From an uncultured Myxococcales bacterium (lineage in GTDB: Bacteria; Myxococcota; UBA4151), in contig CAXGWI010000006.1 of the NCBI GenBank assembly GCA_964013405.1, positions 9,266 through 73,265 of the forward strand: 64,000 nucleotides of DNA, given 5' to 3'. Positions 8,979-64,000 of the stretch are shown in pieces. Every line of letters starts with the position of its first letter. Positions within the stretch are counted from its first letter, which is position 1. A model generated the notes under the pieces. That model saw nothing but the letters and a program-made list of their open reading frames with translations. It was not told where the DNA came from and did not search any database. A program made the position numbers and the translations under genes.

Positions 8979-10417
8979 TGGCCGGCGACAAGACATCCAC
9001 CGGACTTCTCCGGCCTCGCCGTGGCGTCGCCCTCCTGCTGGTGTTGGCGACCCTGGCGGTCCTGACCACCATCACCACGCAGTTCATCCATGAAACCCAG
9101 GTCCGCAGTCAGATCGCTGCCAACGCCCGGGACTCGGTACGAGCCTACTTCCTGGCCCGCAGCGGCACCGAACTCACCCGCCTCTTGATCGGGTTCATGA
9201 AGCAAAAGCCCTGCCCCATGAGCATGGGGCTCGGGACTCTAGCCAAGGGCAGCCAGAGCGGCCAGGCCACCTGCGAAGACGAGTTGCGGGGGCTCCAGTC
9301 GGCCCTGAATCTACCGCCCCAGCCTTTTTGGCGTATGCTCCCCCTCGACTCCGGGCTTTTTGGTGCCATCGGCGATGGCAGCATGGGGCAGATGCTCGGT
9401 CTGCCCACGCCGAAACTCACCACCGCGGCCATCGACCCCCAGTCCGGCGAGTTGAGTGGCGATGACGAGGGAGACGGGCCCGGCGGCGACGGCCAAGCCC
9501 TCCTCGCCAATCTAGGGGGAAGCTTCTCCGTTTCTATCGATGATGAAGATCGTAAAATCCCGTTGAAGCAACTTTGGAAGGGAACACCGGCCCAGAATCG
9601 GGCCGCCGCCCTCCGCTTGGCTGCGCTGATCTCTGCGCCCCGTTACGATGGTCTCTTCCAAGCGACCAATGCCCGAGGGGAGGATGTGGACCGCCGGGAG
9701 TTGATCTCGACCATTCTCGACTGGATGGATCCAGACACCTCCATCTCCGAGATCGACTTCATGACCGGGCAACGGGTCACGGGAGCCCAAAGCGAAGACA
9801 GCCGCTACGACAAGGAGGCGACGCCCTATCGTAGCAAGAACGCCTCCTTTGATAGCATCGCCGAACTCAAGCAACTCAAGGGCTTTACCGACGAGGTCTA
9901 CGCCGCCTTCGCCGATCAGATGACCATCTACGGCGAGAATCGAATCAATGTCGAAAGCCTCCTGGGAAGCCTGCTGGGCGTCGGCTCGATGAACCCGGAC
10001 CAGGAGGAGACGCCCTCCGCACCGGTTCAATTCCTCACGGCGGTCTCAGTGTGCCTGGCTCCAGAGCAAATCCTGCAAGTCGGCGAGCGCCTCAACCTCT
10101 GGTATTTGGCTTTCAATCGCTGCGTCGCCGCGAAACTCACCGACTTGCCTGAAATCCAGGCCCTTTGCCCACTGGGCGAAACCCCTGGCCTGAGCCCCTT
10201 CGACAACTATTTCGTCAACGTGATGGCCCAGCTCACCGCGGCCGAGGGGCTCGATTTCGATACGAAGGCCTGTCAGGAGTCCATCACGACCAGCTCCCGT
10301 TATTTTAGAATCACCAGCCAGGCCACCGTCGGCCGGGCTGCCCGCACCCTCACATTGGTTCTTCGCTACGCCCCATCGGACGCGGCTGAAGAGCGTTACT
10401 ACTGGCGAGAGGAGTAA
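8978..10417 (+). CDS. gspK: Minor pseudopilin K
   Basis: Start placed at ATG 8978 overlapping the gspJ stop. RRG|VALLLVL (no Glu+5, as in GspK), ILDWMDPD, FDSIAELKQLKG, INV, SRYFRITS motifs. Confidence 0.9.
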   Translation: MAGDKTSTGLLRPRRGVALLLVLATLAVLTTITTQFIHETQVRSQIAANARDSVRAYFLARSGTELTRLLIGFMKQKPCPMSMGLGTLAKGSQSGQATCEDELRGLQSALNLPPQPFWRMLPLDSGLFGAIGDGSMGQMLGLPTPKLTTAAIDPQSGELSGDDEGDGPGGDGQALLANLGGSFSVSIDDEDRKIPLKQLWKGTPAQNRAAALRLAALISAPRYDGLFQATNARGEDVDRRELISTILDWMDPDTSISEIDFMTGQRVTGAQSEDSRYDKEATPYRSKNASFDSIAELKQLKGFTDEVYAAFADQMTIYGENRINVESLLGSLLGVGSMNPDQEETPSAPVQFLTAVSVCLAPEQILQVGERLNLWYLAFNRCVAAKLTDLPEIQALCPLGETPGLSPFDNYFVNVMAQLTAAEGLDFDTKACQESITTSSRYFRITSQATVGRAARTLTLVLRYAPSDAAEERYYWREE

Positions 10418-44166: not shown

Positions 44167-45900
44167 TCAGGCCCCCTTTCCAAGCAGGTCGATGATCGTG
44201 ATGGCCAAACTGGTCAGGGCTTCACCCACGATCAAGCCCGCAGCAAAGGGCACCACCTTACCACCGAAGAAAGCGCCGCCCCGGCTGCTCTCAAGGCGCC
44301 AACCCACCAAGCAACCGATGCCGTAGCCCAAGGTCACTTCGAAAGGCAGGTACATGGCTAAACCCATCAGCACCCCCAGCCCAGCGATGGGCAAGGCCCC
44401 GAGGCTCAAGCCAATGAGTCCACCGGCCGCATATTTGTCGAGGGGCGCATTGCCGCCGATGACCCCATCGATCATGGCCTGCAAGGCGCCGGCTTGGGGT
44501 GCGGAGAGACAATCACCGCTGCCCTTTTGCAGGCAGGCCGTAGACTCGGGACCAAAGCCGGGCGTGCCGTCGCCGGTGGCTGTCCACAACAAGTAGACGG
44601 TGCCCACAGCAACCACCGGCCCGATCCAGCCCGTAAAGATCTGCGCCAACTGTTGTCGCCGGGGGATACCACCGACCAAATGACCGGTTTTCAAGTCCTG
44701 CATCATGTCAGCGCATTGGCCAACCCCGACGCAAACCGCGACCCCCACGGTGACCGCGACCACCGCATTGCCCCCGGTGATCGCCAACATCAGCGTCACA
44801 CCGATGAGGGCCATACCGGAAAGTGGTGAGATATCGGTCATGCCCGTCGCCTGGGCGACGATGAGTCCAGCGAGGGCCGTCCACAGCACGCCGACCACGG
44901 CCACCGGCAGGGCCATCACCGGACCCACCGTCAGCGAGGAACTCAAGTAAAGCAGCAGCGTCGCGCCGGCCAAGCCGATGGCCAAGGCCCGTCCCGACAG
45001 TTCCTGAGCACCGCCGCCAGCGGCGGTTTTTGCTGCCGAGCCCAAGGTTTTGATGGCGGCACGAATCGCGGGAAAGGCAGCGATCACGCCGGCCAGAGCA
45101 CCACCGATCAAGATGCCGATGCCTGCAGGCCGCAACAACTGACCGTAGAGTTGCCCCCAGACCTCGTCCCCATTGCTGCCAGTAAAGGGATCCGTCCAGC
45201 CAGAGGCGACCGCCATGGGCGCGAGAATCCACCAGGCGAGCACCCCGCCGAAGGCGAAGGGTAAGCCCCCCCGACCCGACAGCATGCCGGCGCCGATATT
45301 CATCAGACTGAGACTGAGCAGGGTGCCCGTGTAGGCGGGAATGCCAAACCAGTCTCCCACGGCAAGAGCCTCAGGAACGGCATCGACCTTATCGACTAAG
45401 ATCTTCACGCCAGCGCTCAACAATGCGCCAAAGGCAAGGAGCTTGAGCTTCTCCACACCGGCACCAGGCGACTTCAGAATGGAGGCCACCGCCATCCCTG
45501 AGGGAAAGCGTAGCCGGTCGAACTCCAGCATCTGCTTGCGCAGCGGGATGATGAACACCACACCGAGAAAGCTGCCGGCCATGGCGGAGAGCACCATGGC
45601 GCCCCAGGAGAAATCTTCGCCCATGAGCAGCAGGGCGGGCAGGGTAAAGACCACGCCCGAACTGGACACGTTGATGGCACTGGCGATCGTCTGGTTGACG
45701 TTGTTCTCGATGATCGTGCCCGTACCGAGGGCCTTGAGAACGGCAAATCCAAGGATGGCGGCAACGGTCGAACCGCCCAGGCCAAAGCCCAATTTAAGGC
45801 CCACATAAACGAAGGCCGCGGTCATCAAGACACCGAGCAATGCCCCCAGGATCATGGCCTGGAGGGTGAGTTCAGGATAGGGGCGTTCGCTGCTGCTCAA
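44167..45900 (-). CDS. OPT/YSL-family oligopeptide transporter
   Basis: PELTLQA, YVGLKLG, IIENNVNQTIASA, IPLRKQM, LRFPSG, DMMQDLKTGHLVG, APQA; TTG start with AGGAGG. Confidence 0.93.
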   Translation of the reverse strand: MSSSERPYPELTLQAMILGALLGVLMTAAFVYVGLKLGFGLGGSTVAAILGFAVLKALGTGTIIENNVNQTIASAINVSSSGVVFTLPALLLMGEDFSWGAMVLSAMAGSFLGVVFIIPLRKQMLEFDRLRFPSGMAVASILKSPGAGVEKLKLLAFGALLSAGVKILVDKVDAVPEALAVGDWFGIPAYTGTLLSLSLMNIGAGMLSGRGGLPFAFGGVLAWWILAPMAVASGWTDPFTGSNGDEVWGQLYGQLLRPAGIGILIGGALAGVIAAFPAIRAAIKTLGSAAKTAAGGGAQELSGRALAIGLAGATLLLYLSSSLTVGPVMALPVAVVGVLWTALAGLIVAQATGMTDISPLSGMALIGVTLMLAITGGNAVVAVTVGVAVCVGVGQCADMMQDLKTGHLVGGIPRRQQLAQIFTGWIGPVVAVGTVYLLWTATGDGTPGFGPESTACLQKGSGDCLSAPQAGALQAMIDGVIGGNAPLDKYAAGGLIGLSLGALPIAGLGVLMGLAMYLPFEVTLGYGIGCLVGWRLESSRGGAFFGGKVVPFAAGLIVGEALTSLAITIIDLLGKGA

Positions 45901-51214: not shown

Positions 51215-51850
51215 ATGAAGTTCTTTATCGACAGTGCAGATCCCACGGAAATCGCCGAGGCCGAGGCCATGGGCCTCCTCGACGGTGTCACCACCAACCC
51301 GAGCCTCCTCAAGAAAGCAGGGCTAGGGCGAGAAGAGGCCTTGCAGCAAATCTGCGCCCTGCTGACCGGACCGGTCAGTGGCGAAGCGGTTGGCCCCGAT
51401 GTGGACACCTTTATTGCAGAGGGGCTTGCCCTACGGGCCATCGCCGACAACATGGTGGTGAAGCTGCCCTGCAACGAGGCCGGCCTCAAAGCCTGCCGCC
51501 ATCTTTCCGCCCAGGGCATTCCCGTGAACATGACGCTGGTCTTTCAGCCGGTTCAAGCGCTGCTCTGTGCCCGGGCCGGCGCCACTTTTGTCAGCCCCTT
51601 TTTAGGCCGTCTCGACGACATCTGCTCCTCGGGCATGGAGTTGATCAACGAGATCCGGGTGATCTTCGACAACTACGCGCTCTCCACCCAAATCCTCGCC
51701 GCCTCGATCCGCAGCCCGGAGCACGTCAAGCAGGCTGCGCTCTCGGGCGCTGATGTCTGCACCGTTCCTTTGCCGGTCATCAAAAAGCTCCTTCACCACC
51801 CGCTGACGGATCGAGGGATCAAAGCCTTTGAGGCGGATGCAGGACTGTAG
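51215..51850 (+). CDS. tal: Small transaldolase (FSA/TalC family)
   Basis: MKFFID start at 51215, GVTTNPSL, VVKLP, AASIR. Glu in VSGE and Phe in SPF are the transaldolase-type residues (FSA has Gln/Tyr). Confidence 0.9.
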   Translation: MKFFIDSADPTEIAEAEAMGLLDGVTTNPSLLKKAGLGREEALQQICALLTGPVSGEAVGPDVDTFIAEGLALRAIADNMVVKLPCNEAGLKACRHLSAQGIPVNMTLVFQPVQALLCARAGATFVSPFLGRLDDICSSGMELINEIRVIFDNYALSTQILAASIRSPEHVKQAALSGADVCTVPLPVIKKLLHHPLTDRGIKAFEADAGL

Positions 51851-54324
51851 TGACTTCGCCGGCGCCCAGCCGAATGGAACGGATACTCAGCATCGGCGGG
51901 TGGCTGACTCGCTTTAGTTTGATGCTTGGGGCCGCAGCCCTCATTCCTGCGGGCTGGTTCGCACTCTCTTTGTATCAAGAACATCGGGAAGGGTTGCCCC
52001 CCGTCCCCGATCTAGACAACTACCGGCCGCCATCGATCACCCGGGTCCTGGCGGCCGATGGCACCACCTTGGCCGAGTTTGCCGAGGAGCGACGGATCGT
52101 CGTTCCCTATCAGCGCATGCCCCAGCGGCTGGTGCAGGCCTTCGTGGCTGCGGAAGACAAGAACTTCTTCGACCACGACGGTGTCGACCTCAAAGGCATC
52201 GTGCGCGCAGCCCTCGTGAACCTCAAAGCGGGGCGCACCGTACAGGGGGCATCCACCATCACCCAGCAATTGGCCAAGCAGCTCTTGGTTCGGCACCAGG
52301 GTTACAGCAAAGGCCGAATGCGCAGTTTGGCGCGCAAAATCCGTGAGGCGATCCTCGCCCGGCGAATCGAATACGCCCTCGATAAAGAGGAGATCCTCTA
52401 CCTCTATCTCAACGAAATCTATCTGGGTCATGGTGCTTACGGTGTCCAGGCCGCCTCCCAGGCCTATTTTTCGAAGAATGTAGAGAGTCTCAGCCTGGGT
52501 GAGATGACGTTGCTCGCGGGCCTACCGCCGGCCCCCAGCCGGTTCTCGCCCCTAAAAAATCCAAAGTCGGCGCGAACCAAACAAGGCTATGTTTTGAAGC
52601 GCATGATCGAAGAGGGCTATATCAGCCTGGAGGATGCGAAAGCGGCCCGACAGGAAGGGGCCGAAAAGAAGGTCAAAGTTCGCGAAAACCTGTTTCGAGA
52701 CATCGCCCCTTATTTCACCGAGCAGGCTCGACAGGTCTTCGTCGACCAAATGGGTGAAGAGGAGTTGATGCGGGGAGGCTGGACCATTCAAACCACCCTG
52801 GACATCTCCCGGCAGATCAAAGCGAGGACAGCGCTCCAAGAGGGCATTGAGGCTTTGGATCGGCGCATGGGTTATTGGGGGCCAGCAGCCCGCTTCCAGC
52901 CCGAACAAGTGGAGGCAGTGGCCAAGACCTACGCAAAAAATGTCCTCAAGGGCGCACCGGCGAGCCGCGAGCGAGAGCATCTCGCCATCATCGCCCGTAC
53001 CGAGCGAAAAAGAGCCCTCGCCCGAGTCGGCGACGAGCTCCTGCCCATCCACCTCAGCGACCATCGTTGGATGCGCACCGGCCGCCGCCGAGCCTATAGC
53101 CTCCACGACCGTCCCACCGATCTTCGTCGCCGCTTTGAAGTGGGCGATCTGCTTCGGGTACGTTTCGACACGGACCGCAAGGGCAGGGAAAAGCTTCGTG
53201 TGGTACAGGACCCACTGCCCGAAGGGGCCTTGGTCAGCCAGGATTTGCGCACCGACTACGTGGTGGCCTTGGCCGGCGGTTACGACTTTGACCGTAGTCA
53301 GTTTAACTGCGCCTTTCAGGCTTGCCGACAGCCGGGGAGCGCTTTCAAGCCCATTATCTTTTCCGCAGGTCTGGCTCTGGGGGGGCGCATCCGCCGGGGG
53401 GCGCCCGTGGAGACGATCACCGTCACCACCCAGCTGAGCGATGCCCCCATCGTCCGCCACGATTTCTCCACCGGGGTGCGCTGGAAGCCGGCCAACTACG
53501 ACCGCAGCTATACCGACGAGGTCACCCTCCGGCGGGCTTTGATGATGAGCATGAATTTGCCCACCATCGACCTCTTTGAACGGGTGGGCTCAAAGAAGGT
53601 GGTGGAATGGGCCAACAGCATCGGCATCGAGCAGGAACTGCATGTGGATGCGAGCATCGCGCTGGGCAGCCACTGCGTCATTCCTTGGGAGTTGCTGCAG
53701 GTCTACGCCTTGTTCGGCAAAGCCGGTCAACGACCAGCTAAGCGCTTCATCACCCGCATAGAATCCAGTGAAGGCGATGTCTTTGAAGATCGGGCCGATT
53801 ACCGAGACGTCTGGGCGAGCCGCTTTGAACGCGTCGATCGCATGGCGCGCCAGGCCCTGGAGCCCCCAGAACAAGTCATCGCACCGGGCATCGCCTACAT
53901 TATGACCTATCTGATGCGGCAAGTCGTGGACGCCGGCACAGCCACTCGAGCCCGCATCTCTGGGGTCCCCGTGGCGGGCAAGACCGGCACGACCAACGAC
54001 AACAAGGACGCCTGGTTTGTGGGCTACAGTCCCCACCTCGTCACCGGCGTCTGGATCGGTGAGCGCTTCAACCTGCGACCCTTGGGGCGCTCAGAGACCG
54101 GGGGCAGAACGGCTGCTCCCATCTGGAAGGCCTATATGACCGCAGCCCTCGACGGCACCGATCCGGGGGACTTTGGGGTGCCCGATGACATCGAATTTGC
54201 CGAGGTGGACGCCCGCTCGGGCCGCTTGGGCGGCAAAACCCGATTGCCCTATATGAAGGGGACGAAGCCCACCCGCCGAGTTCGGGTCGACAATCAATCA
54301 GCGGGGGTCAGCGACGAGCTCTAG
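51850..54324 (+). CDS. mrcA: Class A penicillin-binding protein 1A
   Basis: Transglycosylase AEDKNFFDHDG, GASTITQQLAK, RKIRE; transpeptidase SAFK, SMN, KTG. Confidence 0.95.
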   Translation: MTSPAPSRMERILSIGGWLTRFSLMLGAAALIPAGWFALSLYQEHREGLPPVPDLDNYRPPSITRVLAADGTTLAEFAEERRIVVPYQRMPQRLVQAFVAAEDKNFFDHDGVDLKGIVRAALVNLKAGRTVQGASTITQQLAKQLLVRHQGYSKGRMRSLARKIREAILARRIEYALDKEEILYLYLNEIYLGHGAYGVQAASQAYFSKNVESLSLGEMTLLAGLPPAPSRFSPLKNPKSARTKQGYVLKRMIEEGYISLEDAKAARQEGAEKKVKVRENLFRDIAPYFTEQARQVFVDQMGEEELMRGGWTIQTTLDISRQIKARTALQEGIEALDRRMGYWGPAARFQPEQVEAVAKTYAKNVLKGAPASREREHLAIIARTERKRALARVGDELLPIHLSDHRWMRTGRRRAYSLHDRPTDLRRRFEVGDLLRVRFDTDRKGREKLRVVQDPLPEGALVSQDLRTDYVVALAGGYDFDRSQFNCAFQACRQPGSAFKPIIFSAGLALGGRIRRGAPVETITVTTQLSDAPIVRHDFSTGVRWKPANYDRSYTDEVTLRRALMMSMNLPTIDLFERVGSKKVVEWANSIGIEQELHVDASIALGSHCVIPWELLQVYALFGKAGQRPAKRFITRIESSEGDVFEDRADYRDVWASRFERVDRMARQALEPPEQVIAPGIAYIMTYLMRQVVDAGTATRARISGVPVAGKTGTTNDNKDAWFVGYSPHLVTGVWIGERFNLRPLGRSETGGRTAAPIWKAYMTAALDGTDPGDFGVPDDIEFAEVDARSGRLGGKTRLPYMKGTKPTRRVRVDNQSAGVSDEL

Positions 54325-54709
54325 GACCGCTCCGCAGACGAGATATCAGACGATCAGCGCGACGAGTCATTCGGGATAAAAGGAGGGCTCGAAAACGAGA
54401 GATACGAATCGCTCGCCCGTTGCGCTCAATGGCGGCGAGCTTGCCGATGGCTTGGCTGCGATCGAACCAGCCGTCATCCTCGTTGCGGTGATCACCTTGT
54501 AGCCGTAGCTGCCCCTCTTGGTGCTCCATCAGGCGATGCAGCAACAGATCGCCCGGGCTCCGCTCGATCAAGACCACATCCCCCCGCCGCAAGGGCCCAT
54601 CGATGGGAACGATTCGAACCAAGTCACCGGCTTTAATCCAAGGCCACATGCTGCGACCTTGGGCGAAGAATCGGATGGGTTTGCCTTCTTTTAGGAGCCG
54701 GGCAAGCAC
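54308..54709 (-). CDS. S24/S26-family (signal-peptidase-like, Ser-His) peptidase
   Basis: GRSMWPWI (Ser), GDVV, LLHRL (His), QGD...D; GTG 54709 behind GGAGG, overlapping the kinase 3' end; no N-terminal TM. Confidence 0.88.
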   Translation of the reverse strand: MLARLLKEGKPIRFFAQGRSMWPWIKAGDLVRIVPIDGPLRRGDVVLIERSPGDLLLHRLMEHQEGQLRLQGDHRNEDDGWFDRSQAIGKLAAIERNGRAIRISRFRALLLSRMTRRADRLISRLRSGPRARR

Positions 54710-55467
54710 GCAGCAGCCTCCAAGGTCTCGACCAGGGCGTCTCGAGGAGAGTCCCCTCGCAAATTCCAATGGACCCGGTAACAGGGGACGTTGTCCACCA
54801 CCCGCTTCACCCAACTCAAATCAGGAGCCAGGTCCTCTGCTTCCAGGCGAACGACTGCGGAAAGAAGCGCTGTTGCAGCATCGGCGGCGGTCACCGGCTC
54901 AATCCGAGGAGCGCGCTCAGACTGGACCGGCATTAAGAGCGCACTCAAAGGGCGACGCTCTAGGTGGTCGGCACGCAATTCCCCGGGAACCACGGTGCCC
55001 TGCAGCCAAAAATCATCCGTTTGGCCGCCAAATCGAATCAGCTCGTCGCCAAGTTGCTCAAGTCCCAAGCGACGAACTAAGGTCGACTTTCCAGCACCGG
55101 AAGCGCCAAGAATCAAAAAGCCACGGTCCGTGCTCAAACAGCAACCAGCCGCGTGGGCGATGCGCCAATCATTGCCCTTACTTGCCGCAGCCAAGGCGGC
55201 AATCACCCCCACAAAATGACTCCAGGGCACCGTCCAGCGGGTGTGAACCCGAGGGTTACGGTAAGTCGTGACTCGAAGAATCCGATCGTCAAAATTCCAG
55301 TCCAGTCGATCGAGAGCGAACTGGTTAGATTGCATTCGAGGGAGCGTCGTTGATCCCGACCGCAGCACGAGGGTCAGCGCCTCTGCTCCGTGGTCACATG
55401 CTTCGGGCTGATACCGGCCGCACCACCGGAATAAGTCGGACAGATCCTCTTCCGACTCGATCTCCAC
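54691..55467 (-). CDS. HPr-kinase-related P-loop kinase
   Basis: AHAAG, Walker A GASGAGKST, LGDEL acidic pair. The true start is uncertain: the frame is open upstream to the TAA at 55519-55521. Confidence 0.85.
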   Translation of the reverse strand: MEIESEEDLSDLFRWCGRYQPEACDHGAEALTLVLRSGSTTLPRMQSNQFALDRLDWNFDDRILRVTTYRNPRVHTRWTVPWSHFVGVIAALAAASKGNDWRIAHAAGCCLSTDRGFLILGASGAGKSTLVRRLGLEQLGDELIRFGGQTDDFWLQGTVVPGELRADHLERRPLSALLMPVQSERAPRIEPVTAADAATALLSAVVRLEAEDLAPDLSWVKRVVDNVPCYRVHWNLRGDSPRDALVETLEAAACLPGS

Positions 55468-55518
55468 AGAAAGGTCCGACTGAAGAAGGAGTCGATTCGA
55501 AATGGTGCCGATACCCTT

Positions 55519-55650
55519 TTACTTGGACTCGCTAAGAAGCACGTCCTGAGTAAGCTCTTGCTCGCTGATCACCTCAGGCCGAAAATAAGGAACCCGCTCT
55601 TTGGTGGGTAAGCGAGGCGCACGGCCCTCCTCTTTTTTCTCTTCTGCCAT
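55519..55650 (-). CDS. 43-aa RiPP-precursor-like peptide with a YxxP leader motif
   Basis: Below the ORF-track cutoff. GGGAG RBS, then ATG 55650: MAEEKKEEGRAPRLPTKERVPYFRPEVISEQELTQDVLLSESK*. Sits in the same operon as a PqqD/RRE gene. Confidence 0.8.
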   Translation of the reverse strand: MAEEKKEEGRAPRLPTKERVPYFRPEVISEQELTQDVLLSESK

Positions 55651-55662
55651 GTCTAGACTCCC

Positions 55663-58600
55663 TTAATGTCGAATATTCACGTAGCCGCCACCGGAACGAA
55701 CCGGGAAGGCGAGGTCAGGTTTTCCATCCAAGTTCGCATCGGGCAAACACACCCCATGGACGGCGCCACTGGTGTTTGCGTCGAGCCCAGTGCCCACACC
55801 GTAGGTCTTCGCCAGGGTTGTGATCGCACTGCCAAAGTATACATAGCCCTCGTTCGTCGCCCCAGTGAGGAGATCCATTTTACCATCACCGTCGATGTCA
55901 CAAAGACTCGATTCGTCGATTTCGTTAAAGCTGCTCGATCCGGCCGGCGCGGTGATCACATGATCTCGCGCTCCACCCAATGCAGGGCCACCCTCCCAGA
56001 TCGAGATGGCTCGAGTGCAACAACCATTACCGGCCAAGATATCCGCGGTGCCGTCACCGGCGACATCGCCCACAGCAAGATAAAATCCGGTTTTACCTTC
56101 GCCGCCGCCCGCACCGGCAAGCAGAATCACGCCCGCACTCTGATAGGTGTAGGCACCATCTGCGATCGGCCCGGGAACCACGACGAGCTCCCCGACGTTG
56201 CCATTGGCTTCTTCACCGCCAATAATGAGGTCGCCATTACCGTCGCCTGTCACATCTCGACCCGCGTTCAACGACGTACCAGTCGACGAGAAGGGTCGAC
56301 CTGTCACCGTCACCGCGGCATCCGCATCACTACGATTTTGGGTCAGGATATCACCATCCCAAACCCAGGTCTTACCGGTGGAGCTGTTGTGGCGCCAGGA
56401 GGAGGCTGCAAGGTCAACGGTTGCATCACCCACAAGAGAGCCACCGGCCGATAAAGAGTAACCAAAGCGGTCACCAGCGGTACCCGTGATCGTGATGCTT
56501 GGATTTGCCGCCAAGCCCGCTCCGGAGCCGTTGTAGATGAAGATCTTGCCATCACCATCTCTAGGTGCGGAGACGACGAGATCATCAAAGCCGTCACCGT
56601 TAAAGTCTGCGGCCGTGCAATCGCTGCCGAATCGGCCGCCACTTGCCGTTCCAAAGCGGGTGATTGGAGTGAGATTACTCAAATCGTCTGCACCCATGAA
56701 GATGATGGCGCCGCCCACCTGGGAGCCGGCGGGCGCAAAGCTGCGATCGGTCACCACCAAGTCACTGCGACCGTCGTTGTTGAAGTCACCACGACACGCA
56801 CGCTGGGCGAACTTATTCGTATTGCCCGTAATTCCGCTGGCTGCGTAGGCTGACAGGGTCAGACTAAAGTCGACGGAGAGCGTGCCGAGATCCGACGTAT
56901 TGCCTAGGTCATCCGTTGCCTGACCTGCGAAGAAGACCTGCTGGTCAAAGGGCAAACCTGTCACCGAGACCAAAAGATTTTGGCCGGCACCTGCCGGCGT
57001 CATCTCAGCGTTGATAACGGTCGCATTACCGAAATTGTTGGCATCGATAGCAGCCGAGCTATGGCGTAGACTGTAAGACGTCACCGTCCCCTGATCGAAG
57101 TCGTCGCCAGGCTCAGTCCAATTGATATCCACACTGCCTGCACGGTTGTTCACATTGGCACTGGCCAAGCTCATCGCATCTGGCTTCCCGACGTCGACAT
57201 TCGCCACCAGCTGCGTTGTCGCTGTGTTGCCGTTGGCATCAGTGGCCGTCACCGTCAGCGTGTGGTTCTGGTTCGTCAAACGAATATCAGTGATCACGTT
57301 ATCGGTATCGCCGGCCACTGCTTTCGTTTGCACATCGCCGTCCTGATCGCTGTTGACCACCAGGGTGCCACCGGCCGCACCACCAACGGCGACCGTAATA
57401 CTGGTGTCTAAGCGCAGATCGCCGGCATTGTTCTCGTGCACTTCATCGTCATCATAAACATAAGTGACCGGACTGTTGGCTGGATCCGTAATCTCCACCG
57501 TAGGAGCCACCGTATCTACGATGGCGTTAATAGCAACTTGCGTCGTGTTGTTCTGAGCGTCGGAAATCGAGGCACTCACGCTCACCGTTCCTTCGTCAAC
57601 GGTCACCCCAGCAAAACTGACCGAGGCCCCATCGCAGTTCTCCTCGATGGCTGCTGCCCCCCCTACCGTAAGGCTGACGGGACGACCGGCAGCATCGCAA
57701 CTGAGATTAAAGGTGTACTGCATGCCGGCCGCGCCGTCCTCGTCATCTCCCGCATTGAGGCGTGCCGGATTGGCCGCTGGTCGAGTAAATGCCAGACTTG
57801 GCGCAGTCAGATCCACGCTCACCGTCACTGCCGCGGAGGTCGTGATGTTGCCGCTGGCATCGCTCACCACGGCAGTGAGAGTTTGGTCGGCACCTTCTAG
57901 CAACGTACAGGTCAGACTGAGTTGTCCCCCATTGGTCAGCCCAGTACAACGTTCGCCACCCAAACTGCTACTAAGGGAAACCGTACGCCCATTGCCAACC
58001 TGGGTTGCAGTCACCGGAATGATCACTTGAAGGCCACCGGTATCGTCATCTGCATCGTCTTCGTCAGCACAGGTGCCATCACAGGGTGTTTGGTCGATCG
58101 AGATCACGGGAGCAATCGAGTCAACATTGACGGTCACTGACGTGGCCGTGGTCGTATTGCCGACTTGATCTGAAACCGTAGCGCCCAAGGTGACCTCACC
58201 CTCCGGCAGCGTCACCACGCCAGCCGCTGTCCCCGCGGCAAGAGCGATATTCTGGAGCGGTTGATCGTTGGCTGTGAAGTTCACCTCCTGGCCGGTCTCC
58301 GCACTACTACTTGCGCGGATCGTGTATTGCATCCCGTCCGAGACGTTATCTTCATCGACGGCGTTGTTATCCCCGCTGACCAGTAACAAGGCGCCGTTTC
58401 CAGGCCGGCTAATACTCAATGTGGGGGCCGTAATGTCGACGATCAGACCGAGTCCAGCGCCGGGATCATTGGGGTTCCCCGCAGCATCGGAAGCACTCAC
58501 AGTCAAGGTCTGGGTTGCTTCCTGCAATGTGATGGCGGCGCTGTGTGCCGCTTCATCCGCGACCTGGCCCTGGGCAAGCAGAGTCTGGGGTTGAGGAAAG

Positions 58601-61600
58601 TCAGTAAAGACTTGATAGGTGCTACCCACCCGAGCGCCCGTAAGGCTGAAGGTAAAGGTCCCCTGCCAGCCAGCGGCGTTGTCACCATCCTCAGCGGCAT
58701 TAAGGAGCAGTCGGCCCCCTGATGATGCGCCATCATCACCGGCGATGGCGAGTAAGCTCAACTGCGGTGGCGTGGAGTCGACGGTAAACTGAACCGAATC
58801 AGTCGCTGTATTGATACCATCACTTGCGGAAACAGTGAGCGTGTTTGCACCTTCTTCGACGGTGATATTGGCGATCTGAATAGTAGCGCCAACCACTTGC
58901 CCCTGACCGATGGCTGTTGCGTTGTTGTTTGGGTCGCCATTGGCATCGAAGACATAGATCGTCGCACCGTTCTCGACCCCCTGAAGATTGGCGGTGATAT
59001 CGACTTGGTAACCGACTACGCCCCGGTTTGAATCCTCTCCCGCGTTGTAGACATTGCCCTCAATGGGACGAATAATCTCAATCGCTGGCTCACTACCATC
59101 CACGGTAATGTTACTCGCCTCGGCACTGCCGGTGTTTCCGTTGACGTCCACTGCATCGAGACGAATGGTGTGATTGCCATCGGTGAATGTCAGTGGCGGG
59201 AAGGTCAGATTTCCTTGGGCGAGTACGCTGACTCGCTCGTCCCCATTGTCAAAGAGCGTTGCCTGAGAGCCCGGGGCAAACCCGTCAACATCAGCCTGCA
59301 CACGATACTGGAGGTTCTCAGCAACCGCGTCGAAGTCTTGGTCACTCCCCAAGGCCATCCCGTTGTTGAGGTTGTTGAAGCTTACAGTCGGACCCACTCG
59401 ATCCACCGTCAGCGTGACGACCGCCGAACCGGCGTTCTGCGCTGCATCGGCCGCCGCCACTGTCAACTCCACGGAACTGTCGGCATCGTTGACCTCGTCG
59501 GCCAGCGCCACATTGCTGAAGCTAAAGGTACAGTTGGCAAAGCCACTGGAGTTGTACTGCCCGTCGACGTTACCGCCCACGGCCGTGAGGGTTGCCGTCG
59601 GGTTGAGGCCATCCACTGTGCAGGTTTGTTGGTCTTCCGCCAGGGCACTCACCGTCAGGTTCTTGCGGTAGTTACCCCCCTGGGTGGAGTCCGCATCGAT
59701 CGCCAGGTTGTAAACGTTGCCGTCAGGCAGCCCCGCAAAAGCGAGAGCCGGTGCGGTACGATCGATCACGATGGTGGTCGCTGATTGGGTGGTGACCGGC
59801 TCGGGCACACCTTCCAAGGCGCAGGAGGCGGTCAGTACCCAGGCTCCTTCCACCTCGAGGCGCAGGGCATCCCAGTTCAGGAAGCCGTTGGCATCCACGC
59901 TCGCATTGCCCGTCACATTGGTCTGACCGTTGAGGGCTGAGACCTCACAGGCGGTGCCCTCGGGCAGATTGGAATTGCCGCTGACCGGCACCGCTGCCGC
60001 ATTGGTCCTAAAGCCATCGGCCGGGCTCAGAATCCGAACAAAGCTGTTGCCCGTGACCACCGTTAAGACGCGCTGAACGACCGTTTGGTTGCCCGCAGCA
60101 TCCGAGACTGTCACCTCAAGCCGGTTGGGTCCGTCAGGCAACAGGATGCCATTGCCTTCATTGGTGAACTGGGCCAGCAGTCGGGCCGGATCACCCGTCG
60201 ATACGGTCACCGCGGTCAGGGGCTGTCCCTCGTTCAGGCTGAGACTCACCTGGGTGCCTTCCGCCTCGTTCGCCACTTCCACTTGAAAGGCGTATTGGAA
60301 ACCGTCGGCCGTGTTACCGGTCCAGTCCAAGCTTGGATCCAACTGGGCATCGAGGGTGGTGCCCCCCTCCTCGAGGGCCCGTTCCGGGTTCCCCTCTGCC
60401 CCATCAAGACCCGCAAGCGTCAACTCTGGTGCAGCTGAATCCACGGTCACCGTCACCGGTGCCGCCGTCGCCGTGTTGCCACCGCTGTCGCTCACCGAGG
60501 CCCCCAGTACGTAGGTGCCATCGCCCCCTTGACCATCGGACAGATCAAAGCCTTCGATGAAGGTGCTCGCCCCCTCGACCACCACAGGTACCGGGTCGAG
60601 GACCCGGGCGTTCTCACCGACGGTGATCGTAATCTCCTGGCCCGCTTCCGCATTGGCCACAGCGATTTCGAGATTCACCACCGGGCTTTGTAGCGCGCTG
60701 TTGTCCCCAGGACTCAAGAAGCCGATGGTCGGCGGGTTGCCGTCCACACTCAGCACACGGGGCGGATCTGAGACCGCCGAGTTACCCGCACCATTTTCCG
60801 TCGCCACACCGGCCCGGAGCTGCAGTTGACCATCATTGAGCGTCACCGCCACGCTGGCTGCCCCCTGGGCATCCAGATCCACCAAGGCGGAGCGGATATA
60901 GGCGCCACCGAAGGCCCCTTCGGCATCGGCATAACGATATTCGCAGTAGGCCTTGGGATTGCGCTCAGAAATCGCCTCGAAGTTGTCGACCGAAAGGCGA
61001 CAGAGCACCTGAAAGCCCTCGGTGAGATTGTCGTGGTCATTCTCGGCGAGCAGCGTGCCGTCTTCGGCGGGCGCCACCATCGTCACTGTCGGGACCACCA
61101 TATCCACGGTCACGGTCCACGTGAAACTCGCCAAGTTGCCCGCCTCGTCGGTCGCGCTGGCACCGAGGGTCTGCTCCCCAGAGCCGAGGGCCAAGGTGGT
61201 CTCAACCACACCGAACTCGTTGGCCGTGACCAATCCCCCCTGGGCATTGCCGTTGACGCTCATCTGCACGCCGGCCACATCGGCGCCGTTCTCAAGGCGC
61301 AACTGAACGAGGGCCTGGAGGCCATTGACGGGGTCGCCGTCCTGATCATCCGCAACCCCGAGGATGGCTTGGTGGGCCGGTCGAACGAGGGTCAAGGTCG
61401 GTGCCACGGTATCGACCACGTGGTACTGACGCAGCGCCCGACCGTCATTCTTCTCGCCGGCACCATCGCTCAAGGTGATGTCAAAGGCCTGACTGCCCTG
61501 GGGCAGTTGTAAACGGATCGTTGCCTCACCGTCCGAATCCAAGGTCCCGTTGGTGGTACCGGCCTCGCCCAACACAGCGACGCCGGCGATGGAGCCTGCG

Positions 61601-62466
61601 CCGCAGTTTGTGGAGTTGATGATCAGGTCCACATCGGCCACCTCAGGGGTGTCGGTGACGAGATCTGCAGCGGCGAGAATAGGCCCGCCGTTCCGAGGCG
61701 CAACCACGTTCACGATGCAAGCGCCGGTGTCGACGGTGAAACTCACCGAGGCGGTCCCTTGAGCCTCGTTATTGACGGTCACGCTGGCCTCAAGCTGAAC
61801 CGGCCCCTCAGGGAGGTTCACCTCTGGAAAGACAACGGCGCCGTTGTTGTCCAAGGTGCCGTCCACCGTCTGGTGGGCACCGGTGACGAGCAGGCCGACC
61901 GATTGGCCGGCTTCGACCCCCTGGCCATCACAGCGGACATTCACATTGTACTGCATGCCTGCACTGTCCGAGATATCGTCGCTGGCACCGAGGGTCGTGT
62001 TGGAGGTGAGATCTACAAAGCGACAGCGGGGGCCGGCCGGCGTTGTCACCGTATAGCTCGCCTGAACCGTGACGGTCTTACCGTTGTGGGTCACGCTCGC
62101 TTTCACCGTGTTGTTGGCCGAGGTCGCCCCGCCCTGCGGTGCCACCAGGGTAAAGTCGGCAAAGGTCACCTTGCCGCTACTCACGGTCCCCGATGCGGAG
62201 GAGTTGTTGATGGACTCGTTCTCGATATCGACCGTTGCGCCATCCGCATTGCCGGCCCTTAAGACCAAATCGACTTGTAGACCATTGCTGGGGTCGTTGT
62301 CCTTGTCAGCGCTCAGATCCAGGCGGGAGCCCGGCGAAGGCGACAAAAAGGCGAGGCTGGGCTCCATCACCGGCTCATCATCGCAGGAGCAACCGCTCAA
62401 ACCACCCAGTGCAACCAGGCTAAGACCGACCCAATTTCGAATACTCAGGGACATCATGTCCTCCAT
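55663..62466 (-). CDS. Giant surface lipoprotein: tandem bacterial Ig-like repeats, FN3-like domain, seven FG-GAP repeats
   Basis: Lipobox LSG|C; repeated L..G...L.(A/V)...D..GN......V.VD...P units; WTEPGDD...YSLRHS FN3-like domain; seven D.(N/D)GDG..DL-type blades at the C-terminus. The real start is probably ATG 62454 or 62457 behind GGAGG. Confidence 0.92.
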   Translation of the reverse strand: MEDMMSLSIRNWVGLSLVALGGLSGCSCDDEPVMEPSLAFLSPSPGSRLDLSADKDNDPSNGLQVDLVLRAGNADGATVDIENESINNSSASGTVSSGKVTFADFTLVAPQGGATSANNTVKASVTHNGKTVTVQASYTVTTPAGPRCRFVDLTSNTTLGASDDISDSAGMQYNVNVRCDGQGVEAGQSVGLLVTGAHQTVDGTLDNNGAVVFPEVNLPEGPVQLEASVTVNNEAQGTASVSFTVDTGACIVNVVAPRNGGPILAAADLVTDTPEVADVDLIINSTNCGAGSIAGVAVLGEAGTTNGTLDSDGEATIRLQLPQGSQAFDITLSDGAGEKNDGRALRQYHVVDTVAPTLTLVRPAHQAILGVADDQDGDPVNGLQALVQLRLENGADVAGVQMSVNGNAQGGLVTANEFGVVETTLALGSGEQTLGASATDEAGNLASFTWTVTVDMVVPTVTMVAPAEDGTLLAENDHDNLTEGFQVLCRLSVDNFEAISERNPKAYCEYRYADAEGAFGGAYIRSALVDLDAQGAASVAVTLNDGQLQLRAGVATENGAGNSAVSDPPRVLSVDGNPPTIGFLSPGDNSALQSPVVNLEIAVANAEAGQEITITVGENARVLDPVPVVVEGASTFIEGFDLSDGQGGDGTYVLGASVSDSGGNTATAAPVTVTVDSAAPELTLAGLDGAEGNPERALEEGGTTLDAQLDPSLDWTGNTADGFQYAFQVEVANEAEGTQVSLSLNEGQPLTAVTVSTGDPARLLAQFTNEGNGILLPDGPNRLEVTVSDAAGNQTVVQRVLTVVTGNSFVRILSPADGFRTNAAAVPVSGNSNLPEGTACEVSALNGQTNVTGNASVDANGFLNWDALRLEVEGAWVLTASCALEGVPEPVTTQSATTIVIDRTAPALAFAGLPDGNVYNLAIDADSTQGGNYRKNLTVSALAEDQQTCTVDGLNPTATLTAVGGNVDGQYNSSGFANCTFSFSNVALADEVNDADSSVELTVAAADAAQNAGSAVVTLTVDRVGPTVSFNNLNNGMALGSDQDFDAVAENLQYRVQADVDGFAPGSQATLFDNGDERVSVLAQGNLTFPPLTFTDGNHTIRLDAVDVNGNTGSAEASNITVDGSEPAIEIIRPIEGNVYNAGEDSNRGVVGYQVDITANLQGVENGATIYVFDANGDPNNNATAIGQGQVVGATIQIANITVEEGANTLTVSASDGINTATDSVQFTVDSTPPQLSLLAIAGDDGASSGGRLLLNAAEDGDNAAGWQGTFTFSLTGARVGSTYQVFTDFPQPQTLLAQGQVADEAAHSAAITLQEATQTLTVSASDAAGNPNDPGAGLGLIVDITAPTLSISRPGNGALLLVSGDNNAVDEDNVSDGMQYTIRASSSAETGQEVNFTANDQPLQNIALAAGTAAGVVTLPEGEVTLGATVSDQVGNTTTATSVTVNVDSIAPVISIDQTPCDGTCADEDDADDDTGGLQVIIPVTATQVGNGRTVSLSSSLGGERCTGLTNGGQLSLTCTLLEGADQTLTAVVSDASGNITTSAAVTVSVDLTAPSLAFTRPAANPARLNAGDDEDGAAGMQYTFNLSCDAAGRPVSLTVGGAAAIEENCDGASVSFAGVTVDEGTVSVSASISDAQNNTTQVAINAIVDTVAPTVEITDPANSPVTYVYDDDEVHENNAGDLRLDTSITVAVGGAAGGTLVVNSDQDGDVQTKAVAGDTDNVITDIRLTNQNHTLTVTATDANGNTATTQLVANVDVGKPDAMSLASANVNNRAGSVDINWTEPGDDFDQGTVTSYSLRHSSAAIDANNFGNATVINAEMTPAGAGQNLLVSVTGLPFDQQVFFAGQATDDLGNTSDLGTLSVDFSLTLSAYAASGITGNTNKFAQRACRGDFNNDGRSDLVVTDRSFAPAGSQVGGAIIFMGADDLSNLTPITRFGTASGGRFGSDCTAADFNGDGFDDLVVSAPRDGDGKIFIYNGSGAGLAANPSITITGTAGDRFGYSLSAGGSLVGDATVDLAASSWRHNSSTGKTWVWDGDILTQNRSDADAAVTVTGRPFSSTGTSLNAGRDVTGDGNGDLIIGGEEANGNVGELVVVPGPIADGAYTYQSAGVILLAGAGGGEGKTGFYLAVGDVAGDGTADILAGNGCCTRAISIWEGGPALGGARDHVITAPAGSSSFNEIDESSLCDIDGDGKMDLLTGATNEGYVYFGSAITTLAKTYGVGTGLDANTSGAVHGVCLPDANLDGKPDLAFPVRSGGGYVNIRH

Positions 62467-62744
62467 CAGGACCCGTGGCCCGCGAGTAAACCCCGCCGGC
62501 TCAGGTCCTCTAAAAATCGCTCAAGGTCTGCGGTGGCCACCTCGGGCCCGACCGCAAATGCTTCGGTAATCGCTTCGACGAGATCGGTGAAACTCATCCG
62601 ACCATCCAAGCGTTCATAAATAAATGCGCCCACCGGGTTTAAGACGCGCATCATCGCTTCGTCAGACTTCACCACGATCATCTCGCCATCAAAGCGCTCA
62701 AAACTCGCCATCTGGCTACGCTGTGGAAGGTTGGTCTGGCTCAC
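62466..62744 (-). CDS. PqqD-family RiPP recognition element (RRE) protein
   Basis: FDGEMIVV...VLNPVGAFIYERLDG...LVEAITEAFAV...ADLERFLEDLSRRGLL, the classic 3-strand/3-helix PqqD pattern. Start placed at GTG 62744 (the ORF extends to 62816). Confidence 0.93.
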   Translation of the reverse strand: MSQTNLPQRSQMASFERFDGEMIVVKSDEAMMRVLNPVGAFIYERLDGRMSFTDLVEAITEAFAVGPEVATADLERFLEDLSRRGLLAGHGS

Positions 62745-62812
62745 GTGCGCTCGCGCGTCCCCGGGTTTAATTAGTGCATGCCCAGGCAGATTGCCCGAGG
62801 CCCCAAAGGCTG

Positions 62813-63874
62813 TCAAAGACTAGAATCGTCTACCAAGGCCTGTCTCACCTCCGCCTCTAGTTCACCCTCGCCCGGTGTTCCAGACCAAAGTCGACGCACT
62901 CGTCCGTCGCCGTCGATGAGGGCGAGGGTCGGATAGACGGTGATACCCACCTGGCCGCCCCAACTGTTGGCCCCCCGACCATCGACGAAGATCTCAAGCC
63001 CGGGACGGTAGCGCTGCTGATAACTTTTAAGTTTGGGCAGCACCGACCCCCGACCATCGGCGGCATCACGACTGATGAGCACCACCCGAAAACGGGGGTC
63101 AGTGATGGCTTCGTCGAGGGCTTTGAGGCGAGGAAGCAGGCGCTTACAGCTACCACACCAGGTGGTGAAGAACTCCACCAAGGTCAGGTGGTCCGCCAAA
63201 TCATCCGGGGAAAATGAGCCCCCATCGAGCCGCCGAATGGGCTGGAGGCGGCTCGCCACCTGATCGCCGCTCGCCACGATCTGGCGCGTCGTGGCCTGCC
63301 GGTGGGCTGGATGCACACCGCTGGCGATCAACACAGCGAGGCAGACCCACAGCAACCGATGAAGCCACTGGCTACGGTGCCGCAGCAAAAAGCCCAAGAG
63401 CAGGCCAAAAGCGATGATCCCCAGCGCCATGAATTGGGAGGGACCAAGAGGCTGGCGCAAAAGACCACCAAGGCCTTGATAAGGCAGGGTATCGATCCAG
63501 CCGGGGTATTGGCCGAGTCGACCAAGATAAAAAGCGCTCAACAGCAGATGATAAACACTGGCCGACAGGGCCACAACCACCGCAGCCCCCTGCCACAAAC
63601 CGATACCGTCGGTGGCGGCTGAAGCGATCTTCATTGGCTGCCCCTGCCGCCAACGGCGAAGCAGCTGGACGGCGAGCCCTAAACTGAACAGCAAGATCAG
63701 TTCGGGAAGCAAGCCGCTGACCCACTTGTTCAAAAGACTCTGGCTCGGTCCCTGCCAGTCCCGCCGATAAAGAGGGAGGGTCGCTCCGACCGCCACGGAC
63801 ATCAGTCCCAGGCTCAGGAAGCCAAGTTGGGGCCAGGGCAGCGCGGGACGCGCCTCGTCTTCAGGCTCGGTCAT
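62813..63874 (-). CDS. Membrane-bound TlpA-like thioredoxin
   Basis: About five N-terminal TM helices, then LVEFFTTWCGSC and VYPTLALID..G motifs. Confidence 0.85.
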   Translation of the reverse strand: MTEPEDEARPALPWPQLGFLSLGLMSVAVGATLPLYRRDWQGPSQSLLNKWVSGLLPELILLFSLGLAVQLLRRWRQGQPMKIASAATDGIGLWQGAAVVVALSASVYHLLLSAFYLGRLGQYPGWIDTLPYQGLGGLLRQPLGPSQFMALGIIAFGLLLGFLLRHRSQWLHRLLWVCLAVLIASGVHPAHRQATTRQIVASGDQVASRLQPIRRLDGGSFSPDDLADHLTLVEFFTTWCGSCKRLLPRLKALDEAITDPRFRVVLISRDAADGRGSVLPKLKSYQQRYRPGLEIFVDGRGANSWGGQVGITVYPTLALIDGDGRVRRLWSGTPGEGELEAEVRQALVDDSSL

Positions 63875-63948
63875 CGATAGCCCTTTATTCCCTTTTGCAC
63901 TCCGGGACCACCGGCTAGGAGAACCACCGTTCGGGAGTGCCTAAGGCC

Positions 63949-64000
63949 TTGGAAATCATCGTCCAAAAATACGGGGGCTCGTCACTGGCAACCCCCGAGC
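63949..64000 (+). CDS. lysC: Aspartate kinase, 5' end (partial)
   Basis: TTG 63949 gives MEIIVQKYGGSSLATPE..., the aspartokinase N-terminal KYGGSS signature; runs off the window. Confidence 0.85.
   Translation, partial: MEIIVQKYGGSSLATPE

Follow-up and report, generated by a model that had tools for sequence, protein, structure and literature searches.

Pathways for RiPPs (peptides that are ribosomally synthesized and modified post-translationally) are known to produce antibiotics, cofactors and signals. Among the systems closest to the locus described here are the lasso peptide clusters, whose leader peptides carry a Tyr-x-x-Pro motif. According to PMC8498205, homologues of HPr kinase (HPrK) phosphorylate a Ser of the precursor in lasso pathways, acting on the linear form, and B1-type RiPP recognition elements (RREs) bind the leader. 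Our locus lies in a 64,000-nucleotide stretch of DNA from an uncultured marine Myxococcales bacterium (contig CAXGWI010000006.1, positions 9266-73265), which we call the window. It consists of six genes (the cassette) encoding a TlpA-like thioredoxin, a PqqD-type RRE, a giant lipoprotein, a 43-aa peptide, an HPrK/ScmC-like protein (the kinase) and an S26-like peptidase. An HPrK/ScmC-like enzyme outside lasso pathways is found here together with a soluble Sec11-type S26 peptidase. The cassette follows a RiPP-type logic in a combination of parts not yet described together, and it is probably an undescribed peptide system tied to the cell surface.

Comparison with described systems

With paeninodin-type lasso clusters the cassette shares the stand-alone PqqD RRE, the HPrK-fold P-loop enzyme and the Tyr-x-x-Pro leader, but it has no cyclase, B2 protease, ABC exporter or C-terminal Ser, and it contains an S26B-like peptidase and an interleaved giant gene. 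The SynChlorMet cassette (ScmC, TIGR04249; ScmD, TIGR04248; ScmE/ScmF) is similar in other respects: ScmD is the nearest NCBIfam model of the RRE (4e-13; 49.4 bits, below the cut-off of 100), relatives of the kinase match ScmC, and in a protein atlas the kinase adjoins clusters with Pfam PF27840 (ScmC), which are commonest in Myxococcota. Unlike in SynChlorMet systems, the window proteins score below the cut-offs, the genome holds no radical SAM (rSAM) enzyme with a SPASM domain, and an S26 peptidase and a giant protein fall outside the system's definition as given by the NCBIfam names. The HPr-rel-A system (TIGR04352/04355; PqqD protein TIGR04353) likewise pairs a PqqD protein with an HPrK-related P-loop protein and includes a nucleotidyltransferase; here the scores are 14-39 bits against cut-offs of 200, and the window cassette has no nucleotidyltransferase.

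The original prediction had stated that rSAM, lasso B2 and nucleotidyltransferase genes are absent from the window, and for rSAM/SPASM genes and a B2 protease above cut-off this extends to the whole genome (G000). Since the assembly is 94% complete, these absences are to be read as "not found". No SPASM domain (PF13186) was matched in G000, where a SynChlorMet system would have two rSAM/SPASM maturases, and the best match to the rSAM enzyme of a relative (G005, see below) reaches 28% in the N-terminal half only. The closest approach to a B2 protease is a Transglut_core3 match of 19.6 bits, under the cut-off, on another contig; the cassette has neither a lasso cyclase nor B2, and a genome-wide cyclase search was not made. 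The only NTP_transf_5 gene (L109, C34:9770-13883) lies among genes for ApaG, SRPBCC and a 922-aa RCC1/DUF4215 repeat protein, which is not a peptide cluster. By its gene content, the window cassette is classed as neither a lasso nor a SynChlorMet system.

We found no paper on the SynChlorMet cassette or on ScmC with radical SAM enzymes. Searches for HPr kinase with RiPPs returned lasso or unrelated work, and looking for PqqD, HPr kinase, signal peptidase and FG-GAP led only to work on lasso leaders. A 2023 review on the proteases of RiPP leaders contains none of the terms S26, S24 and signal peptidase, and where "S26" occurs in the accessible parts of PMC10288494 and PMC13692751 it is a figure number. 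None of these searches turned up a paper on the trio of RRE, ScmC-like and S24/S26-like proteins, on its Tyr-x-x-Pro peptides or on its link to giant propeller proteins.

The cassette recurs with giant genes across the phylum

To compare the neighborhoods of related loci, 301 genomes of the phylum were searched with a kinase profile, and 80 contained matches. Outside the window's class, which comprises six genomes of two genera, we examined 54 of the 55 best among 91 matches; a 1.9-kb contig of G142 was omitted, and the 36 weaker matches were left out. At each locus, stop-to-stop frames over about 19 kb were scanned with hidden Markov models (HMMs) of the class genes and of seven rSAM/SPASM genes that Pfam had confirmed. 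The loci are related and several contigs are cut, so the counts are descriptive.

An RRE was present at 39 of the 54 loci, an S26-like gene at 37, an rSAM gene at 27 and a thioredoxin gene at one (G150). A same-strand frame of at least 900 aa ends upstream of the kinase gene, a few hundred bases away at most, at 24 of the 54 loci, spread over eight families; in 20 of these it is at least 1500 aa long, and 21 also carry an RRE and an S26 gene. In G000, by a greedy gene call, 70 of 1517 genes encode at least 900 aa and seven at least 1500 aa, which puts the enrichment upstream of the kinase over this background at about ten-fold and eighty-fold, respectively. Loci with the giant one gene further away, e.g. 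L096, L057 and L061, escape this criterion. Giant and rSAM genes are nearly exclusive: 20 loci have only the giant, four both, 23 only rSAM and seven neither.

Pfam searches with 12 giants of distant loci assigned eight to the same Big_13 plus FG-GAP type as in the window; the others show NHL/teneurin-like repeats, a PQQ-like propeller with beta-helix, or a C25 peptidase. At L055 the large neighbour is an RCC1-EGF protein. An EamA/DMT transporter gene directly follows the S26 gene at 16 of the 54 loci, all giant-type (e.g. L056 10822-11763, L080 7490-8422). Fused frames were also seen, combining HPrK-like with S26-like parts (L062 9359-10693, G157) or HPrK-like with rSAM parts (L065 2291-4240, G187; L077 350-2299, G074); L065 has an ABC exporter as well. 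Pfam and NCBIfam detect GNAT domains in the peptidase open reading frames (ORFs) of L066 and L080, and an HMM of the GNAT tails of two class members (G002/G003) gave no distant match. On two giant-type loci no NCBIfam model exceeded its cut-off on any part.

Taken together, loci with RRE, kinase, S26 peptidase and peptide next to giant genes recur in at least nine families of the phylum, the window's included. The neighborhood test proposed in the original prediction, that these genes repeatedly flank giant surface-protein genes, came out in its favour with the 24 loci and all six class loci, and homologues that always carry rSAM genes and never accompany adhesins are not what we see, with 20 giant-type loci free of rSAM. 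The adhesin link is real and seen repeatedly, and loci without rSAM make up a common branch rather than a lone remnant. The description of the cassette as "stripped-down" needs qualification: the window's lineage does lack rSAM, yet the cassette is no unique oddity and belongs, as one branch, to a large family; half of the examined loci (27/54) carry rSAM/SPASM genes and others GNAT or EamA.

The 43-aa peptide has the features of a RiPP precursor

The peptide ORF is preceded by the sequence GGGAG, 8 nt before its ATG, and each of the six class loci has, after the giant's stop codon, an intact small ORF with a Shine-Dalgarno-like site. Within the class the middle of the peptide is conserved as Tyr-x-x-Pro-x-Val/Ile followed by Q-D-[VA]-L. 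All tails start with Ser or Thr after [ALV] and then diverge into SESK-type (window and its same-genus relative G001), SGF-type (G002, G003) and 12-residue tails (G004, G005); that of G005, the class member retaining an rSAM/SPASM gene, ends in Cys. An alignment of 24 peptides shows invariant M1, Y22 and P25, basic residues ahead of the Tyr and unrelated C-terminal parts, including two-Cys 13-mers in f10, a family with large genomes, and multi-Cys tails ending in Gly-Ser at rSAM loci. A conserved leader with wholly different tails beside tailoring genes is the pattern of a RiPP precursor.

We also scanned the 700 nt upstream of each kinase gene in the phylum for ORFs of 25-90 codons with the Y..P motif, using the 15 loci without an RRE as a control for chance ORFs. 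Such ORFs occur at 29 of the 54 loci, comprising 29 of the 39 with an RRE and none of the 15 controls. A search of the protein atlas with the peptide (best score 0.81) gave no lead. Read-through of the giant's stop codon into the peptide was considered and rejected, because the two are in frame in only three of six class loci, which is the chance level.

Conservation of the locus within the class

The kinase-like gene is present in all six class genomes. According to tblastn, the order of all six genes is the same in G001 (cassette locus L016), G003 and G005, and likewise in G002 and G004 as far as their short contigs allow; since the cassette is syntenic in six of six genomes, its order is beyond chance. 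Identities between the genera are 34-42%. Ratios of nonsynonymous to synonymous substitution rates (dN/dS) between the window and G001, computed for five genes, are 0.08 for the giant, 0.10 for the thioredoxin, 0.12 for the RRE and 0.22 for the kinase, showing that these four are under purifying selection; the peptide is considered below. In G005 an rSAM/SPASM gene lies between kinase and peptidase (Radical_SAM 4.6e-24, SPASM 1e-13), and G002 and G003 have a fusion of peptidase and GNAT domain. In the window's lineage, a stripped branch, the cassette holds no rSAM, GNAT or EamA exporter.

As a separate observation, the synonymous divergence (dS) between the window and G001 drops along the operon, from 1.98 in the thioredoxin gene over 0.71 (RRE), 0.73 (giant) and 0.28 (peptide) to 0.17 in the kinase gene, and the spacer between peptide and kinase is identical at 49 of 54 positions. 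This suggests recombination or a nucleotide-level constraint at the 3' end of the operon.

The kinase is an HPrK-like, ScmC-related protein

In Pfam the window kinase gives generic AAA matches only. A profile from nine family members retrieved 3822 cluster representatives at E ≤0.001 and 11 at 1e-30, and 36 of 150 listed matches were checked against NCBIfam. For 23 of the 24 distant single-domain relatives among them the best match was HprK-related kinase A/B or ScmC, all under cut-off; three also match the true HPr(Ser) kinase model. Others are natural fusions of rSAM/SPASM with HPrK-like parts (P0072, P0140) or of an HPrK-like part with an S26-like peptidase (P0124), and by structure the atlas contains a PqqD-fused cluster and an S24-ScmC cluster from other phyla. 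Such fusions tie the rSAM/SPASM, HPrK-like, S26 and PqqD parts to one another.

The AlphaFold2 model of the kinase has a predicted local distance difference test score (pLDDT) of 75, with 83-95 for residues 100-250 and poor values for the N-terminal 60 residues. Foldseek returned 14 matches at E ≤0.001, led by HPrK/P (1knx, E 1.2e-4) and PEP carboxykinase (6asn, 2.2e-4) with probability 1.00 and TM-scores of 0.3-0.5, so that the model has the HPrK/PEPCK-type P-loop fold. Invariant in 18 sequences are R102, H105, G121, S123, G126, K127, G140, D141 and E142, including Walker A; His105 and Asp141-Glu142 are the presumed equivalents of the HPrK/P catalytic residues. Canonical HPrK/P (TIGR00679) has no match in the whole G000 genome at E 0.001, a sequence-profile search of the PDB with the kinase family found only generic P-loop proteins, and a P-loop pattern search of the genome contigs gave one irrelevant locus. 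A word-based search for homologues gave only five matches. Profile matches and model together indicate an HPrK-like fold related to ScmC and place the protein nearer to ScmC and HprK-related proteins than to lasso kinases.

In five of the six class loci the kinase frame, which is also that of the peptide, is already open directly behind the peptide's stop codon (window 55468-55518; L016 17009-17062). The GTG start of the window kinase is GTT in G001, which has no ATG, GTG or TTG near the conserved N-terminus, and in-frame ATT and ATC codons are conserved. These features suggest that the kinase may be translated from a rare start codon, by re-initiation or by read-through.

Motifs and model indicate a soluble S26B-type peptidase

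Signal peptidase I of Sec11, SipW and archaeal type, together with SodX, offers the closest comparison for the peptidase: the SM-P, HR and GD...D motifs and the S24/S26 fold are shared. The window protein differs in lacking a membrane anchor, in its length of 133 aa and in being encoded with a peptide-tailoring set; in relatives it is sometimes fused to GNAT or HPrK-like parts. Residues S20, M21, P23, H58, R59, G72, D73 and D79, which make up the catalytic motifs, are invariant in 18 sequences. A profile search matched human SEC11A (1.2e-13) and SEC11C (~1e-13) with these motifs aligned, and SpsB and LexA more weakly. The structure model (pLDDT 89) has SpsB, SipA (4n31), LexA/UmuD and SEC11C as best Foldseek matches. 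Model scores lie close to or below the thresholds (Peptidase_S24 23.0 against 23.3, sigpep_I_arch 24.2 against 51.85), the G005 orthologue exceeds that of Peptidase_S26 (29.7 against 22.9), and another near NCBIfam model is the Ni-SOD maturation protease. No membrane anchor of the signal-peptidase kind was found (maximal 19-residue hydropathy 0.91), and the catalytic Ser is already residue 20. Motifs and model characterize the peptidase as an S26B-type (Ser/His) enzyme that is soluble, in contrast to the signal peptidases of the membrane.

RRE, thioredoxin and giant lipoprotein

The RRE is a clear member of PqqD (PF05402; 57.5 bits against a cut-off of 23.4, over the full model 1-67) and is the sole PqqD gene of G000. 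Its start is probably the ATG at 62711, because G001 has a stop codon in the upstream extension. RRE, kinase and peptidase all lack transmembrane (TM) segments and signal peptides.

The thioredoxin protein has four or five hydrophobic segments (TM segments predicted at 17-35, 54-72, 97-115 and 146-164) followed by a C-terminal thioredoxin domain (Pfam Thioredoxin 38.4 bits against 23.5, AhpC-TSA 32.1 against 26). With the thioredoxin fold, a CxxC motif and the membrane tether it belongs to the TlpA/ResA/DsbE type, while the NCBIfam equivalogs score far below cut-off and the N-terminal membrane part has no family match in Pfam or NCBIfam. It is conserved in G001, G003, G005 and G150. The G005 gene (L019 8710-9832) is broken into the overlapping frames 8710-9258 and 9221-9832 by a frameshift or an assembly error.

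The giant holds paired Cys residues in its domains and has an orthologue in the other genus of the class that is 42% identical. A sub-threshold match to TcdB_toxin_midN (20.5 bits against 24.8; residues 2173-2215) falls inside the FG-GAP region and probably reflects shared repeat features only. We infer that the giant lipoprotein and the membrane thioredoxin are the exported-side parts of the system.

A model for the cassette and its alternatives

Based on these observations, we lean towards the following reading, which draws on sequence comparison, structure models and analogy. The RRE, with which Y-x-x-P ORFs co-occur, is predicted to bind the 43-aa peptide by its invariant Y-x-x-P leader and would pass the peptide to the soluble HPrK-like enzyme. 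This enzyme likely phosphorylates, or otherwise activates with ATP, a Ser/Thr by the leader-tail junction. The Sec11-type peptidase would then likely remove the leader, with a candidate site after [VA]-L-[ALV] following Q-D, leaving a tail of 4-5 residues beginning with Ser. In relatives the product might be acetylated (GNAT), cross-linked (rSAM) or exported (EamA). Because the giant gene is so steadily interleaved in the cassette, the peptide product and the giant protein would act together, the product serving as ligand, partner or signal, and the membrane thioredoxin may serve the disulfide-rich exported giant protein.

Several points weigh against this proposal. The phylum counts overstate independence because the loci are kin, and the giant is not required for the trio of RRE, kinase and peptidase as such, because at 23 loci the trio stands with an rSAM gene but without a giant next to it. 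The window cassette has no exporter, unlike the 16 giant-type loci with EamA. Its peptide has a dN/dS of 0.70 over 43 codons against G001, the 4-5 residues after the conserved leader are an odd length for a product, the C-terminal Ser on which lasso kinases act is missing, and the residues at the leader-tail junction obey the small-residue rule of signal peptidases in some members only. As for the kinase, its single NCBIfam match is HprK_rel_B at 14.3 bits against a cut-off of 200 (E 0.016), which leaves it outside the curated families TIGR04249, TIGR04352 and TIGR04355, and its chemistry is assigned by analogy alone.

The dN/dS of the peptide and its short tail would also fit a decaying remnant, a shrunken core that lost an ancestral rSAM/SPASM enzyme, GNAT domain and exporter and whose remaining genes make no product. 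The rSAM/SPASM gene retained in G005, the S26-GNAT proteins of G002/G003 and of distant loci, and EamA after the peptidase at 16 loci fit such a loss. We nevertheless regard decay as rather improbable: RRE, kinase and peptidase are intact with their catalytic residues in all six genomes of both genera at 34-42% identity, dN/dS is 0.12-0.22 for RRE and kinase, and rSAM is missing from 20 of the 24 giant-type loci elsewhere, which makes the rSAM-less form a normal state. It is doubtful, too, that two unrelated modules, thioredoxin plus adhesin and RiPP trio plus peptide, merely share an operon without a functional tie. Such independence would agree with the 23 loci where the trio functions without a giant, with the different nature of the giants at some loci (NHL, PQQ-like propeller with beta-helix, C25 peptidase, RCC1-EGF) and with the restriction of the thioredoxin to the class and G150. 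It is at odds with the interleaved order RRE, giant, peptide, kinase kept in eight further families, with the enrichment of giants over G000 (from ten-fold to eighty-fold, depending on the size limit) and with the near exclusion of giant and rSAM at the same slot.

Quite unlikely, in our view, is that the giant lipoprotein itself is the target of RRE, kinase and peptidase, or that these three proteins are chaperones of its assembly in the way that the signal-peptidase homologue SipA is for the pili of streptococci, with the small ORF as a bystander or regulator. The giant gene does lie between the RRE and peptide genes at no fewer than 24 of the 54 loci, the peptidase model resembles SipA (4n31), and RRE-bearing rSAM enzymes can modify proteins (QhpD/QhpC and CrpC/CrpA; PMC13692751). 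On the other hand, the same trio accompanies Y-x-x-P peptides at the 23 compact rSAM loci lacking an adjacent giant, peptide ORFs track the RRE (29/39 against 0/15), the three proteins lack signal peptides and TM segments whereas the giant is an exported lipoprotein, and the peptidase retains its catalytic Ser/His, unlike a pure chaperone. Finally, the resemblance of the Y-x-x-P leader and stand-alone RRE to lasso systems, and the proximity of the RRE to ScmD, would be explained by a lasso-type or SynChlorMet-type pathway with its missing enzymes encoded elsewhere. Since the genome, at 94% completeness, has no SPASM domain, only the N-terminal 28% rSAM match, a sub-threshold Transglut_core3 protein and one PqqD gene, this is highly improbable.

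Within the favoured reading of a tailored peptide linked to the giant, one more specific and less likely version can be put forward tentatively: the peptide would be a dedicated cis-encoded partner of an integrin-like giant, tailored in the cytoplasm by RRE, kinase and protease and then serving the FG-GAP propeller at the surface as a ligand, a plug or a small subunit. An analogy, and no more than that, is the maturation of quinoprotein amine dehydrogenase, in which a small leader-bearing peptide, QhpC, is tailored in the cytoplasm by the RRE-bearing rSAM enzyme QhpD, its leader is cut and the small cross-linked subunit joins a large exported propeller partner; the window differs in that no sequence relation is shown, no cofactor chemistry is evident and its tail has no Cys. 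If true, this would define a phylum-wide, so far undescribed class of ribosomal peptides whose purpose is a surface receptor and not antibiosis; rSAM-type and giant-type loci would then be alternative fates of a single leader family. The recurrent interleaving, which includes large-genome relatives that are likely cultivable myxobacteria, could offer a handle on the function of giant adhesin-like proteins and on what may be a peptide and its receptor from the same operon.

Organization and borders of the locus

The six closely spaced or overlapping same-strand genes reported in the original prediction were all recovered in the same order and place on the minus strand (Table 1), and comparisons of family, fold and profile support each assignment.

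Table 1. Genes of the cassette and its borders (positions in the window).
Gene product	Position	Strand	Remarks
TlpA/ResA-like thioredoxin, membrane-anchored, 353 aa	62813-63874	-	Pfam Thioredoxin, Thioredoxin_8 and AhpC-TSA over cut-off; WCGSC; TM segments
PqqD-type RRE, stand-alone	62466-62816; likely start ATG 62711, 81 aa	-	Pfam PqqD 1.7e-15
Giant lipoprotein, 2267 aa, many Ig-like domains and C-terminal FG-GAP propeller	55663-62466	-	Pfam Big_13 2.6e-21, FG-GAP 6.6e-21; lipobox LSGC
Precursor-like peptide, 43 aa; leader basic, Tyr22/Pro25 invariant, tail short and variable	55519-55650	-	
HPr-kinase/ScmC-like P-loop protein, 258 aa from GTG	54691-55467	-	P-loop GASGAGKS; true start may be upstream, up to 55518
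S26B (Sec11/archaeal-type, Ser/His) peptidase, soluble	54308-54814; likely start GTG 54709, 133 aa	-	
Aspartokinase-like (AA_kinase) gene, 5' end; divergent upstream border	63937-64000	+	Translation fits N-terminus of G001 AA_kinase
Class-A penicillin-binding protein (PBP1A); convergent downstream border	51850-54324	+	Pfam Transgly 2.8e-63, Transpeptidase 7.2e-22; also adjoins the cassette in G001 and G003

The peptide gene starts 12 nt after the giant's stop codon and ends 51 nt before the GTG of the kinase gene, which overlaps the peptidase gene. Upstream of the cassette 126 nt remain before the window ends, as does the contig, and they contain the first 21 residues of the aspartokinase-like gene. 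A divergent gene of this kind also borders the cassette in G001 (Pfam AA_kinase 9e-48, L016:7481-8596), G003 and G005. Because this border gene already begins inside the window, no cassette gene is concealed past the contig end, and by gene arrangement the six genes are one bounded, complete predicted operon. On the other side follow convergent genes for the class-A penicillin-binding protein, transaldolase, deformylase and dihydroorotate dehydrogenase.

Marine metagenome runs from several studies, and a marine metatranscriptome library, contain DNA nearly identical to window positions 54000-64000. Metatranscriptome contigs (15 pieces in X1, three in X13, all at least 99% alike) cover parts of the giant gene, one of them extending to 55646, and none lies on 54000-55335 or 62350-64000; as the DNA run of the same sample is equally patchy and RNA libraries may contain DNA, these matches prove neither transcription nor co-transcription. 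A gene for an OPT-family oligopeptide transporter is located at 44167-45900(-), 8 kb off the cassette with housekeeping genes in between.

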